A stretch of 64,000 nt of DNA, taken from sequence record PZ386948.1; one strand, written 5' to 3'. This DNA comes from a phage. This document shows positions 29,721 through 34,199 of this stretch, in pieces (position 1 is the stretch's first letter; the number at the start of each line of letters is the position of its first letter). The translations under genes were made by a program, and so were the position numbers. The notes beneath the pieces are model-generated. The model had not been told where the DNA came from. It was given only the letters and a program-made list of their open reading frames with translations, and did not search any database.

Positions 29721-30107
29721 TTATTCGAGGGAAAGAAGATACTTACTCTGGTAAAACATTCCAGTAATATCATCTATCGTGCTTTGGATGGCTGGAGGCA
29801 TTTCTTTATAAATGCTGTTAGATTGGTCTAGTATGTGATCAATCATTCTAATTGTGTCGGTAGGAAGTTTACTAGCATCTGGAATTGAAGGTGTGTATTT
29901 TCTACCAGAATACCCCAAATATTGCTCACCAAATTTATCAATCAAATCTGGCAACTCGGAGAAAATAAAATCGTATGCTTTGTGTCTAGCATAACTTTTA
30001 GTTTCAAAATGTGCAGAATGAAAATAAGCTTGTGCAGCCATTAATAAACCTAAGTATTCATCTGCCTTTGAAGGTTTTCCACTTTGTGAAAAGTCGCTGA
30101 ATTTCAT
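29721..30107 (-). CDS. hypothetical protein (rI.-1 position)
   Basis: 128 aa ORF directly upstream of rI. Confidence 0.5.
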
Positions 30108-30397
30108 TCAGTCTCCAATTTAATGTTCATAATTCTAGCGTATGATTGTGCCATCTCCGCGCCTCGCTCTATACATTCAAAATCGGAAGAGCACGGGTCA
30201 TTTTTATAAGTCGTTCGCATAAAACTATAGAACTGTTCAGATGATTCTACGCTTTTGTTTTCAAAAAGCATATAAACGTGTCTAATACCAGATTCCATAA
30301 ATTTATCAAAATGAGGATCGACATTCGCTTCAATTGGTGGAGATAAAGCAAACGCTAATCCTAGCATGGCAAATAGTGCCGTTGCTTTTAAGGCCAT
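30104..30397 (-). CDS. rI: lysis inhibition regulator RI
   Basis: 97 aa; signal-anchor N-terminus MALKATALFAMLGLAFALSPPIEA; close to remembered T4 RI. Confidence 0.85.
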   Translation of the reverse strand: MALKATALFAMLGLAFALSPPIEANVDPHFDKFMESGIRHVYMLFENKSVESSEQFYSFMRTTYKNDPCSSDFECIERGAEMAQSYARIMNIKLETE

Positions 30398-31246: not shown

Positions 31247-31255
31247 ATCACCTTC

Positions 31256-31441
31256 TTAAAGCGTATTCACATAAGCTATTAATTCGTTTTCTTTCTTATC
31301 AAACCGATCAGCAAATTCTTCTTGCTGATCGGGAGATAGCGGGCCGTATTCATCATAAAAGGTGTTTGCTTCTGTATGCTCATCTAGAAGTTCATGGATA
31401 AGCTCAAACAATTTATCTTTTTGTTCTTTACTCAGACTCAT
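31256..31441 (-). CDS. hypothetical protein
   Basis: 61 aa acidic ORF. Confidence 0.45.
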   Translation of the reverse strand: MSLSKEQKDKLFELIHELLDEHTEANTFYDEYGPLSPDQQEEFADRFDKKENELIAYVNTL

Positions 31442-31607
31442 ATATTAATTTCCAGGAGTTTTAAAATAATTCGCTTTTGCTTAAATATTTCCATAGTTAA
31501 ATGACCAGTATCTTTTTGACCGATTCCAATGGCAAAACCTTTATTGACAGCGAGTTCAATTAAATTATCAAGCTCACGTAACACTTCATATTGTAACTCA
31601 AAACTAT

Positions 31608-31835
31608 TCATTTCGGTTTACCTTCTTTAACGAAATCAGGATAAGGATAAAATCCTGAATAAAATCCTTCACCTTTATGATTGATGCATCCTTTATTAGA
31701 ACAATAGCACCAATAATCGAAATCACAAGCCATTTCATCATTACATAAAGCAAAAACAACTGGCCATTCACACTTTTCGCAGTGGGCATTTTTAAGAATA
31801 CTGGTTTGGCTCATAACCATGTAACCTTTAAACAA
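31608..31835 (-). CDS. hypothetical Cys-rich protein
   Basis: 75 aa; CEKCEW...CNDEMACDFDYWCYCSNKGCINHKGEG. Confidence 0.4.
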   Translation of the reverse strand: MFKGYMVMSQTSILKNAHCEKCEWPVVFALCNDEMACDFDYWCYCSNKGCINHKGEGFYSGFYPYPDFVKEGKPK

Positions 31836-32023
31836 TATTCTTCTACATGTTGTTTACGACCTTTCCTATCAATAAAGGTATATTCAACGAATGTTCCAAT
31901 ATAGTCTTTATCTACATCATGTGGACTATTAATTGGGCATTTAGTACGGCAAATGCGTTCCCATTGACGAATAATTTCCACTTTGTTTTTAGGATCAAAC
32001 GGATGCGGGTAATGTACTTTCAT
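31811..32023 (-). CDS. hypothetical protein
   Basis: 70 aa ORF. Confidence 0.4.
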   Translation of the reverse strand: MKVHYPHPFDPKNKVEIIRQWERICRTKCPINSPHDVDKDYIGTFVEYTFIDRKGRKQHVEEYCLKVTWL

Positions 32024-32474
32024 AATCCACCACTATTAAATCAATATCAGGAGTAAACATGTCGATTAATTTAGAAACCTTATCCCAATCGCCGCCAGCA
32101 ATACCGCAACCTATGCGTGGAATGTAAATTACTGGTTTAAACAAAAGGGTTTCTGCCTGTAGATTTAATTCTATCATGCAGTTTACTAAAGCACCATAAT
32201 CAAGATTAGGACCCGGTTCGTATTGTGTATACAGGTTATAGCATATACCAAATCCCGTAGGACTATGTTTAAAAACAATAGACATATCGCCTAATTTATC
32301 ACGAGAACCGTACTCGGTAGTGGTTTTATCTATTTCTAAAATTTTGGGATAGGCTCTTGCTAATTGACCCGCTACGCCAGAGCCCATTGTGTGGAAGCAA
32401 TTGCACCCGTGCGCAATAATATTACCTTGAAGAAATAGGGCGACAATATCGCCCTTGATATATTTTACAATCAT
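31995..32474 (-). CDS. macro-domain protein (putative ADP-ribose binding/hydrolase)
   Basis: 159 aa; macro-like motifs IAHGCNCFHTMGSGVAGQL and IPRIGCGIAGGDW. Confidence 0.55.
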   Translation of the reverse strand: MIVKYIKGDIVALFLQGNIIAHGCNCFHTMGSGVAGQLARAYPKILEIDKTTTEYGSRDKLGDMSIVFKHSPTGFGICYNLYTQYEPGPNLDYGALVNCMIELNLQAETLLFKPVIYIPRIGCGIAGGDWDKVSKLIDMFTPDIDLIVVDYESTLPASV

Positions 32475-32812
32475 CTAGTACTCAATCCTCGATTATAAGA
32501 ATCTACTAAACGGTCAACCATTGAATGACAAGCGGCTTTATCTTTCTCCTCCGCAACTGAACATTCTAAAGTATTCCACTTTTTAGCATATCGTTTTAAC
32601 AATGTATCATTTTTATATCTGCTTGATTTATCTCTTTCTCCGTCTTTATATGCATATATTAATTTCTGCGCAAATTCAGCTTGGCATGCTTTATTTTTCC
32701 CACAATAATCCGCGGCAGTACGGTTTACATACTCTCTAATTTCAGTATATGATGTATCTGCTAACGCAGAAAATGAAATTAATCCTATACATAAAACCAA
32801 AATTTTAGTCAT
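32471..32812 (-). CDS. secreted/periplasmic protein
   Basis: 113 aa; N-terminal signal peptide MTKILVLCIGLISFSALA; four Cys. Confidence 0.45.
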   Translation of the reverse strand: MTKILVLCIGLISFSALADTSYTEIREYVNRTAADYCGKNKACQAEFAQKLIYAYKDGERDKSSRYKNDTLLKRYAKKWNTLECSVAEEKDKAACHSMVDRLVDSYNRGLSTR

Positions 32813-33350
32813 TTACTATTTCCAAAAGTTTATTATTTTTAAGGTAATTAGCCTTTTCTAGGACTTCAGAAGCATATTTAGAACCAGCTTTAACATTCCA
32901 TCCCGAATTATAAGAGGATATTGCTTTTCTTATATCGCCCTTATGTATATTTAACCAATAAGAAAGTTCAATGTACGCCCAGGAAGCTGAATTGGATCGT
33001 TTATTCAACATTCTTTTTATTTCAGCATCGGTCATATTATAACCAAGTTCCTTAACTCTTGCTCGCATAGTAGGCAAATAATTTTGGAACATTCCATAAG
33101 CGTGATGCTTTGGTTTAGATTTTAAATTAACTCCGCCAGAGCTTTCTTGCCATAAAATAGCAGCCATTATATGACCTAATCCGCTCTTGTGGATATTTTT
33201 GTGTGTTTTATATTTTCCATCCTTAGAAAATTGTTCCCCGAATTGATACGCGTAACGCATGTTATCGAGTTGGACATTACTGAAAGTATGCTCGGAGCTA
33301 TGTGCCATCATTGAAATGGCCAATAGACCAGCGAGTAGTGCTTTTCTCAT
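32805..33350 (-). CDS. secreted protein, possible lytic transglycosylase-like
   Basis: 181 aa; signal peptide MRKALLAGLLAISMMAHS; QESSG and YNSG motifs reminiscent of SLT domain (weak). Confidence 0.4.
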   Translation of the reverse strand: MRKALLAGLLAISMMAHSSEHTFSNVQLDNMRYAYQFGEQFSKDGKYKTHKNIHKSGLGHIMAAILWQESSGGVNLKSKPKHHAYGMFQNYLPTMRARVKELGYNMTDAEIKRMLNKRSNSASWAYIELSYWLNIHKGDIRKAISSYNSGWNVKAGSKYASEVLEKANYLKNNKLLEIVND

Positions 33351-33357
33351 GCTTACC

Positions 33358-33819
33358 TCATTGAGTTTTAATTACTGCTTTAGAAGCCTTTCCTGGTAAA
33401 CGACGACTGTTAATAATTGCCATCCTACATTGAAGTGACGGGTCTTTGAACTTCGCATTAGGTTTACAAACTGTAAATCCAAGCCAAAGATTTCCATCTG
33501 TGATTTCTAAACGTCCAGGACGGTATTCAACCCCATCAATAAAATCCTCGTCAATGTCAGGACGCGGAGGCATACTCAGGAATTCATTAACTTCTAAAAC
33601 ATGGTCTTTTATTTTGTGGAATAATTCAAAAACATATGTCTCATCAATCTCCCGTTGAATTGCACGATCAAGAAGATGCTGAGAATATTTTAGATGAAAC
33701 GATGAGACCCCTGCTGCTTTTGATGCCTCACGAATCTCATTGTTAATTTGACGAAACTCCGACTCAAAGTGACGACGAAGCTTATTTCGACGGATAAAAA
33801 CTTCTGTGTTGATAGTCAT
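33358..33819 (-). CDS. regB: RegB site-specific endoribonuclease
   Basis: 153 aa; sequence and position match remembered T4 RegB. Confidence 0.75.
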   Translation of the reverse strand: MTINTEVFIRRNKLRRHFESEFRQINNEIREASKAAGVSSFHLKYSQHLLDRAIQREIDETYVFELFHKIKDHVLEVNEFLSMPPRPDIDEDFIDGVEYRPGRLEITDGNLWLGFTVCKPNAKFKDPSLQCRMAIINSRRLPGKASKAVIKTQ

Positions 33820-33878
33820 GTTATTCTCCTCTTAACTGATAGAAAAATTATACCACAGTCAAGAGGAAAAGTAAACAG

Positions 33879-34199
33879 TTATTCTTTAAATCTAATCAAT
33901 TTATTCATAGACTTTGAAACTTCTGCACGGACCTCATGAAGGTTTTTGAGCTGTTCAAGACGTTGCTCATAGTAAGCAATTTCATCTTCTTCAAGACAGT
34001 CCTGTGAATCTTCTTTAAGATAACGTGCATAGTCCTGAAAAGCTTTACGGACTACTTCCTGGAAGTCATCAAGACTTTGAATTTTCTTAGGAGCAGCAGA
34101 CACACGACGAGGGGCAGTATAATACTCATAACCAAACCCTGCGCTTAATTGAGCCATTAGTATTTTTCCTCTGGTTGGAACACAGCACGACAAGCCCAC
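33879..34199 (-). CDS. hypothetical protein
   Basis: 106 aa ORF. Confidence 0.4.

Follow-up and report, generated by a model that had tools for sequence, protein, structure and literature searches.

We analysed a 64,000-nucleotide stretch of phage DNA (sequence record PZ386948.1; hereafter the window) and concentrated on three open reading frames (ORFs) that lie end to end within it and are transcribed leftward. Bases 31700–33900, which contain them, show 100% DNA identity to Shigella phage CM8, a Tequatrovirus, and 95–99% identity to about 490 further T4-like phage records. The ORFs are present where a preliminary description of the window had placed them and correspond to the T4-named genes tk.4, vs and vs.1, all on the minus strand. 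tk.4, the orthologue of adfM (31995–32474), encodes a 159-amino-acid stand-alone macrodomain of a CM8-type allele; vs (32471–32812) encodes a 113-amino-acid precursor annotated as ‘valyl-tRNA synthetase modifier’ (PF26829, ValRS_modifier); and vs.1 (32805–33350) encodes the 181-amino-acid precursor of a predicted periplasmic GH23/SLT lytic transglycosylase. The description had the macrodomain gene ‘followed by’ two signal-peptide genes, but on the minus strand the order runs the other way, from vs.1 through vs to tk.4, and the CM8 and T4 annotations agree on the order regB, vs.1, vs, tk.4, tk.3 ... tk. The vs.1 stop and vs start overlap by 8 nucleotides (ATGACTAA, 32805–32812, minus strand), an arrangement that, as read from the ORFs, is translational coupling; the vs stop and tk.4 start overlap by 4 nucleotides (ATGA, 32471–32474, minus strand), and the end of tk.4 overlaps tk.3 by 29 nucleotides. 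The gene identities and most of the biology are already known, the function of T4 tk.4 having been published in 2025. What we show ourselves concerns the identity of the genes, their folds and motifs, the features of their signal peptides, synteny and the replacement of an allele; two findings discussed below, the protection that tk.4 gives against DarTG2 and the defect of vs mutants on minimal medium, were obtained by others and apply to T4 only.

We found that Tk.4 matches the Pfam Macro family (PF01661) above its gathering cut-off (32 versus 22 bits, E = 1.3e-7). The match covers residues 22–136 and spans positions 2–117 of the 118 in the profile. The single sequence matched solved macrodomains at 3.7e-10, and a profile built from a 31-sequence Tk.4 family, searched against the PDB, matched BT1257 at 2.4e-19, human TARG1 at 8.5e-18, SCO6735 at 1.8e-15, Poa1p (an ADP-ribose-1''-phosphate phosphatase) at 1.2e-14 and the DarG macrodomains at 6.8e-12 and 1.4e-9. 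Two macro-like motifs had been noticed in this ORF beforehand, and both stood up to these searches: H22-G-C-N25...G31-S-G33-V-A35 and P119-R-I-G122-C-G124-I-A-G-G128 are invariant or nearly so in the 31 homologues. Residues G8, H22, G23, N25, C26, G33, A35, D49, L61, G62, N80, Y82, T83, Q84, G88, P119, G122, G124 and W130 are invariant, and G31, G127 and G128 are kept in at least 90% of the sequences. The glycine-rich loops that bind ADP-ribose and phosphate align with the same loops of BT1257 and TARG1. The PADLOC model for DarG (PDLC02990) matched the CM8-type and T4-type alleles alike; on the Tk.4 of the window the match (5.2e-7, 27.5 bits) covered model positions 3–144, the macrodomain part only. 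The full-length profile matches to solved macrodomains point to an alpha/beta/alpha macro fold. We conclude, from sequence comparison, that Tk.4 is a true macrodomain and belongs to the TARG1/DarG/SCO6735 (ALC1-like) clade.

The active site sets Tk.4 apart from two members of that clade. When the family profile was aligned to TARG1 chains, Gln84 (codon CAA, 32223–32225, minus strand), within an NxYTQ motif, fell opposite the catalytic Lys84 (the K of ‘LITK’), and Ala126 fell opposite Asp125. Tk.4 therefore has Q84 and A126 in place of the Lys84/Asp125 dyad of TARG1. The catalytic lysine of DarG (K80) is also absent, and Gln84 is invariant in the 31 homologues. In SCO6735, Gln85 is the equivalent of DarG K80 and TARG1 K84; the enzyme has neither dyad residue, yet it efficiently hydrolyses thymidine-linked ADP-ribose and protects from DarT, its Q85A and Q85E variants are inactive, and a water activated and positioned by the glutamine has been proposed as its mechanism (PMC9411070). 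The glutamine at the lysine position together with alanine at the position of TARG1 Asp125 suggests that Tk.4 chemistry would likewise be of the SCO6735 type, proceeding through a Gln-positioned activated water. Judged by these residues, the whole Tk.4 family, the T4 protein included, is a Gln-type enzyme like SCO6735 and no copy of DarG.

Comparison with individual macrodomain proteins helps to place Tk.4. SCO6735 (Streptomyces coelicolor, PDB 5e3b) shares its clade (E 1.8e-15), the glutamine in place of lysine and the lack of an aspartate partner, but is a bacterial enzyme with a housekeeping or antitoxin-like role and is distant in sequence, and the equivalence of Tk.4 Gln84 to SCO6735 Gln85 was drawn through TARG1 rather than from a direct alignment to 5e3b. 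The DarG macrodomain (PDB 5m3i and 5m31) has the same fold and the same presumed substrate, with the DarG models matching positions 2–145. However, Tk.4 lacks Lys80, lacks the C-terminal DarT-binding domain (it has 159 residues, and the models have 329 and 338 positions) and has no adjacent darT, its neighbours being vs and tk.3. The AdfM protein of PhiKZ (gp104) resembles Tk.4 in being a stand-alone phage macrodomain, with the PhiKZ protein having proven activity.

The preliminary description had proposed that the macrodomain could counter a defence toxin that ADP-ribosylates DNA, which agrees with published genetics of the T4 orthologue. In a transposon screen on a host expressing DarTG2, T4 tk.4 was the sole significant hit, falling from 288.0 to 45.3 reads per TA site (log2 fold change −2.64, q=0); a clean knockout was DarTG2-sensitive, and the gene was renamed adfM, for anti-DarT factor macrodomain (2025 preprint, bioRxiv 10.1101/2025.11.20.689424). 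T4 tk.4 insertions carried no cost when DarTG2 was absent (289.6 reads per TA site in LB and 275.0 in M9, with 45 of 46 TA sites hit). PhiKZ gp104, from a phage of unrelated lineage, strips DarT2-made ADP-ribose off DNA in vitro (2026 paper, PMC13309987). Matches of tk.4 to A1pp/macro and of vs.1 to SLT had been reported in 2006 (PMC1524935), and according to that source a lysozyme-type match of vs.1 was reported still earlier. On these grounds, Tk.4 would be a cytoplasmic stand-alone macrodomain, the CM8 allele of T4 AdfM. Where host DarT2 puts ADP-ribose on thymidine bases of the single-stranded DNA of the phage, Tk.4 would most likely remove it, allowing phage replication to go on. SCO6735 inhibits DarT through direct binding, and Tk.4 might do the same.

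Three points weigh against extending this reading to the allele in the window. CM8 Tk.4 is just 58% identical to the T4 protein that was tested, its specificity could differ, and its enzymology is predicted rather than read from the T4 result. Tk.4 lacks the DarG/TARG1 lysine and TARG1 Asp125, and its proposed mechanism has a precedent in one other enzyme. The NCBIfam DarG model (NF048014) gave 27.7 bits against a cut-off of 250. We also considered whether the macrodomain serves the ADP-ribose economy of the phage itself, by reversing the Alt, ModA and ModB marks on host proteins or RNA or by acting as an Appr-1''-p phosphatase or O-acetyl-ADP-ribose deacetylase. Many records label tk.4 ‘phosphatase’ or ‘Poa1p-like’, the family profile matches the yeast-type ADP-ribose 1''-phosphate phosphatase at 1.2e-14, JGI calls homologues O-acetyl-ADP-ribose deacetylase, and ModA and ModB are ADP-ribosylases in the T4 annotation. 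However, insertions in T4 tk.4 are costless without DarTG2 and carry a strong and unique cost with it, the closest characterised relatives (DarG, TARG1 and SCO6735) all remove thymidine-linked ADP-ribose from DNA, and the locus has undergone allele replacement of the kind expected of an arms-race gene. We consider a role in the phage's own ADP-ribose economy improbable and retain the anti-DarT2 role for Tk.4.

That replacement is apparent when the three proteins are compared with those of T4: Vs.1 is 100% and Vs 97% identical, whereas Tk.4 is 58% identical over 155 amino acids (E 1e-70). We delimited the divergent segment by sliding identity along a MAFFT alignment of the window with T4 and by blastn pieces. 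A cassette at 32010–32391 has 47–66% DNA identity to T4, with flanks of 94–100%, and the apparent crossover points lie in the first ~14 codons of tk.4 and at the tk.3 junction. The gene is nevertheless orthologous to T4 tk.4 both by sequence and by position, occupying the slot between vs and tk.3, and the two proteins share a length class and the invariant motifs, including NLYTQ. They differ in that the CM8 C-terminus is 4 amino acids longer, with a tk.3 overlap of 29 nucleotides instead of 4, and in loop 2, where CM8 has the family-consensus GCGIAGGDW and T4 has GAGIGKGNW. At 90% identity or above, the CM8-type allele occurs in 313 GenBank phage records and the T4-type in 224; a third class, 80–90% identical to T4, occurs in 159. 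We conclude that CM8 tk.4 is a swapped allele and that this anti-defence gene exists among Tequatroviruses in two or more deeply diverged forms, which are exchanged as a cassette. As a separate observation, the segment between tk and tk.3 (31247–31809, minus strand) also diverges from T4: only 31265–31442 aligns (68%), the rest has no blastn match to T4, and CM8 has four small ORFs there against three in T4 (tk.1, tk.2 and tk.3).

Turning to vs and vs.1, we examined the claim that both ORFs start with signal peptides. Calls were made with our own heuristic for n-, h- and c-regions with a −3/−1 rule, which asks for a basic n-region, an uncharged hydrophobic core of 9–22 residues and small residues at −3 and −1. 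Of the 138 ATG-initiated ORFs of at least 60 amino acids in the window, just three passed (rI, vs and vs.1), compared with 0.76% of shuffled controls. All 11 Vs homologues and all 23 Vs.1 homologues passed, as did none of the 31 macrodomain homologues. The third ORF, rI (30104–30397, minus strand), encodes the lysis-inhibition antiholin and, as the sole other ORF of the window to pass, served as positive control. That the calls come from this heuristic and not from SignalP counts against them. The two signal peptides thus held, but the accompanying remark that such signals are ‘unusual’ for phage early proteins did not hold for T4: rI passes too, and in the T4 annotation Sp is periplasmic and Imm is a membrane protein. 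We rejected lipoprotein or membrane-anchor N-termini for Vs and Vs.1, since there is no conserved lipobox cysteine (C8 of Vs is not conserved and Vs.1 has no cysteine) and the h-regions are of 12–15 residues.

The predicted Sec signal peptide of Vs.1, called by the heuristic, comprises amino acids 1–18 (MRKALLAGLLAISMMAHS, 33297–33350, minus strand), with cleavage before SE; many of the 23 homologues have clean AxA sites (AFA|G, VAA|G and AHA|E). What had been described as weak lytic-transglycosylase-like motifs in this ORF proved to be well conserved. Pfam SLT matched Vs.1 at 25.1 bits against a cut-off of 21.3, and among 23 homologues with identities down to 41% no change is seen at E69, G86, F88, Q89, Y147, N148, G150 or Y159, while S70 is kept in at least 90%. 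The motifs ES, GxFQ, YNxG and Y occur in that order, which we take to be the correct order of the motifs that define family-1 lytic transglycosylases. Conservation points to Glu69, in a W-Q-E-S-S motif (codon GAA, 33144–33146, minus strand), as the predicted catalytic acid. An AlphaFold2 model (mean predicted local distance difference test (pLDDT) 88, predicted template modelling score 0.82) was searched against the PDB with Foldseek. The top hits were MltD, a GH23 chitinase, goose-type lysozyme, Slt, Slt70 and the phi6 lysin; the first four of these kinds (MltD, GH23 chitinase, goose-type lysozyme and Slt) had probabilities of 0.95–1.00, and the top 29 PDB hits were all lysozyme-superfamily muramidases or chitinases.

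Some results weigh against a transglycosylase assignment for Vs.1. The Foldseek E-values were just ~1e-2, a sequence-profile search of the PDB returned nothing at E ≤0.01, and lytic-transglycosylase and lysozyme chemistry cannot be told apart from sequence. Taking motifs and model together, we conclude that Vs.1 is a small GH23 enzyme, predicted to be exported and most likely a lytic transglycosylase. It would be exported through Sec and then cleaved, and in the periplasm this family-1-type enzyme, with Glu69 as its catalytic residue, would cut or remodel host peptidoglycan during infection. Vs.1 resembles the family-1 lytic transglycosylases and GH23 enzymes (Slt70, Slt, MltD and the phi6 P5 lysin) in its SLT domain, its Glu-Ser, GxxQ and YNxG motifs and its predicted fold. 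It differs from them in having no accessory domains, in being predicted to be free in the periplasm and in being encoded in an early-region operon, and is neither a virion protein nor an endolysin. Its small size and Sec signal recall the ‘specialised’ transglycosylases of secretion and conjugation systems, VirB1, P19 and EtgA. Homologues occur in 2046 phage records, and relatives include ~85-kb and ~158-kb records of phages from Salmonella, Escherichia and Hafnia, sizes that clearly differ from that of T4. In the published T4 transposon tables 46 of the 52 TA sites of vs.1 carry insertions on plates, where the gene is non-essential. Our literature search found no experimental work on Vs.1.

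Vs is 97% identical to its T4 counterpart and matches phrog_1256 at 5.2e-40, and its homologues carry the label PF26829 (ValRS_modifier). The predicted Sec signal peptide spans amino acids 1–18 (MTKILVLCIGLISFSALA, 32759–32812, minus strand), with cleavage called by the heuristic at an A-L-A site before DT, and the mature protein would have 95 amino acids and a mass of 11.0 kDa. The factor purified as the modifier of valyl-tRNA synthetase was of about 10 kDa. Across 11 aligned homologues with identities down to 25%, the invariant positions are M1, C37, C43, G58, C84, C95, D100, G109 and L110, so that four of the nine invariant columns are cysteines. The signal region retains a basic n-region, a hydrophobic core of 12–15 residues, too short for a membrane anchor, and a small-x-small site in 11 of 11 homologues, with the residues themselves varying. 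Two more metagenomic homologues, inspected by eye, have an N-terminal hydrophobic segment and four cysteines in the mature part. The AlphaFold2 model has four helices (pLDDT 79, below 50 over the signal peptide), and each cysteine pair flanks a hairpin turn, so Vs is probably stapled by two disulfides. A profile search of the PDB with Vs gave a best E of 0.64, and no fold relative was found in the PDB either. The family is a narrow one: one search returned 6 clusters and an exhaustive profile search returned 8 representatives. It reaches Kanagawavirus, Jiaodavirus, Krischvirus and two distant metagenomic lineages, as judged from annotated neighbours and metagenomic loci, and occurs in 796 phage records.

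The conserved signal peptide and the four invariant cysteines fit poorly with a cytoplasmic target and argue for a periplasmic Vs. Made by translational coupling to Vs.1, Vs would be exported and would fold into a ~11-kDa four-helix protein. The textbook account is that Vs is a cytoplasmic protein that binds and modifies valyl-tRNA synthetase, its N-terminus being no export signal or only a minor fraction being exported. That account has behind it the gene name, the Pfam family name ValRS_modifier and the classical biochemistry, in which Vs binds the host enzyme (Muller and Marchin 1975 and 1977, as cited in PMC8076793). In addition, T4 with vs knocked out forms plaques poorly on minimal medium, a condition under which the capacity for aminoacylation could be important. 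The reported target, valyl-tRNA synthetase, is cytoplasmic, which weighs against the export of at least part of Vs. The sequence pattern runs counter to the textbook account: signal features persist in all 11 homologues while the residues change, the cysteines are invariant down to 25% identity, and this is what one typically sees in disulfide-bonded proteins of the periplasm and seldom in cytoplasmic proteins. Moreover, vs is coupled to the gene for an exported enzyme in every lineage examined, and we found no account of how ORF 60.9, as it is named in X04567, was tied to the purified factor. Full-length His-tagged T4 Vs was insoluble and formed inclusion bodies in the E. coli cytoplasm (PMC8076793), and our literature search found no comment on a Vs signal peptide and no experiments on the export or cleavage of Vs or Vs.1. 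We think a purely textbook Vs rather unlikely. The more specific proposal that Vs is an exported, disulfide-bonded periplasmic partner of Vs.1, for example a regulator, with the valyl-tRNA synthetase label mis-assigned, secondary or an artefact arising after lysis, is tentative and in our view also unlikely.

The case for a partnership begins with gene order. In every lineage examined (Tequatrovirus, Kanagawavirus, Jiaodavirus, Krischvirus and two distant metagenomic lineages), vs lies directly after vs.1 with no gene between them, while regB and tk.4 vary, as do the ORFs that separate vs from tk.4. The genes overlap by 8 nucleotides in CM8 and T4, 4 in the locus L008 and 1 in KP185, abut in Kosakonia 305 and in contig L007, and are separated by 7 nucleotides in Makalu. 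Locus L006, which seemed to lack vs, was rejected as an exception, the scaffold having a gap of Ns. In L007 (3836–4532), which is a distant metagenomic relative, two small ORFs after vs have exported-looking N-termini, one signal-peptide-like and one with a possible lipobox (AAVTGC), and in the related L006 an rI-like antiholin gene lies just beyond two such ORFs; this layout suggests a cluster of envelope-directed genes.

We then compared the fitness of T4 mutants, expressed as reads per TA site from the published T4 HIDEN-SEQ transposon tables. On plates (reference library) the values were 103.3 for vs, 75.7 for vs.1, 230.4 for regB, 258.7 for tk.4 and 634.0 for vs.3; in LB liquid they were, in the same order, 26.6, 22.6, 178.6, 289.6 and 652.1; in M9, 5.0, 11.9, 403.0, 275.0 and 626.2; and in the M9 empty-vector control at 30 °C, 9.9, 9.4, 267.3, 288.0 and 610.8. 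Mutants of vs and vs.1 were therefore rarer than those of regB, tk.4 and vs.3 by ~7–29-fold in LB liquid and by ~27–65-fold in the M9 control at 30 °C. The authors of these data discuss vs only, not vs.1. Polarity of vs.1 insertions on the coupled vs is an adequate explanation of the shared fitness defect, which we treat as a lead and not as a result.

An alternative is a single periplasmic module in which the lytic transglycosylase Vs.1 is paired with Vs as a small helical regulator or inhibitor; the minimal-medium phenotype of vs would then be an envelope phenotype. The adjacency of vs.1 and vs, kept across lineages as regB and tk.4 vary, favours such a module, as do the near-identical counts for the two genes in LB liquid (26.6 versus 22.6) and in M9 at 30 °C (9.9 versus 9.4). 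T4 Spackle (Sp), a periplasmic inhibitor that restrains the gp5 lysozyme, offers an analogy. Like Vs, Spackle is a small exported early-gene phage protein, listed in the T4 annotation as ‘sp spackle periplasmic protein’, but it has no detectable sequence or fold similarity to Vs, and Spackle structures were not among the fold-search hits. The Vs model is also unlike known lysozyme inhibitors in the fold search, vs.1 insertions may be merely polar on vs, and the depletion of vs.1 mutants in M9 was not significant after correction (q=0.155). We regard a module of Vs.1 and Vs as doubtful.

The title of the preliminary description implies a wider grouping, in which tk.4, vs and vs.1 are one functional system. 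The tight packing with overlapping stops and starts speaks for it, as does the recurrence of the order vs.1-vs-(x)-tk.4 in several genera. Against it, the predicted compartments differ (cytoplasm versus periplasm), the phenotypes differ (DarTG2 versus medium) and the tk.4 cassette swaps independently of its neighbours. Extra ORFs lie between vs and tk.4 in KP185 and L008, contig L007 (6.6 kb) has no tk.4-like ORF after vs, and the macrodomain family occurs in 2790 phage records against 796 for Vs. We found no evidence of a functional link of the macrodomain to Vs or Vs.1, and a single system of all three is very improbable. We consider it probable that the locus contains three independent accessory genes, encoding an anti-DarT2 macrodomain (Tk.4), an exported transglycosylase (Vs.1) and an exported helical protein (Vs).

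Transcription signals in the region were examined separately. A terminator scan and RNA folding identified a terminator-like 8-bp G+C-rich hairpin followed by a U-rich tract within tk.4 codons 7–13 (32437–32455, minus strand), just past the vs stop. T4 and Krischvirus Makalu both retain the hairpin, and the Makalu record has a terminator annotated at this position; three other lineages lack it. The hairpin might terminate transcription of vs.1-vs or attenuate tk.4. A sigma-70 promoter scan of the region found 11 sites against 14.4 expected from shuffles; there was no enrichment and the scan was not used. Its best sigma-70-like site (33847–33875, minus strand), just upstream of regB, has TTTACT, a 17-nucleotide spacer and TG-TATAAT, with 10 of 12 matches, and is a plausible early promoter for regB-vs.1-vs. 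Several annotations resemble transfer errors: in NC_054939, which annotates the window region, and in other GenBank records, vs.1, vs.7 and vs.8 are noted as ‘Endoribonuclease RegB’, vs is often labelled ‘valyl-tRNA synthetase’, tk.4 ‘phosphatase’ and mobD.4 ‘molybdopterin-guanine dinucleotide biosynthesis protein MobD’.

With so much of the locus already known, its residual interest lies in the allele replacement at an anti-defence gene, in the Gln-type active site and, above all, in the location of Vs and its pairing with Vs.1. The macrodomain shows a way in which T4-like phages undo DNA ADP-ribosylation by DarT2, a role already published for T4, and comparison of its alleles for the range of DarT variants that they counter would be a direct probe of the arms race. 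The evidence for export of Vs reopens a question about a T4 protein whose study goes back decades (papers of 1975 and 1977), and its pairing sets Vs beside Vs.1, a widespread family of predicted periplasmic transglycosylases. If a partnership of the two is true, the vs defect in liquid and in minimal medium would belong to envelope biology and not to translation.

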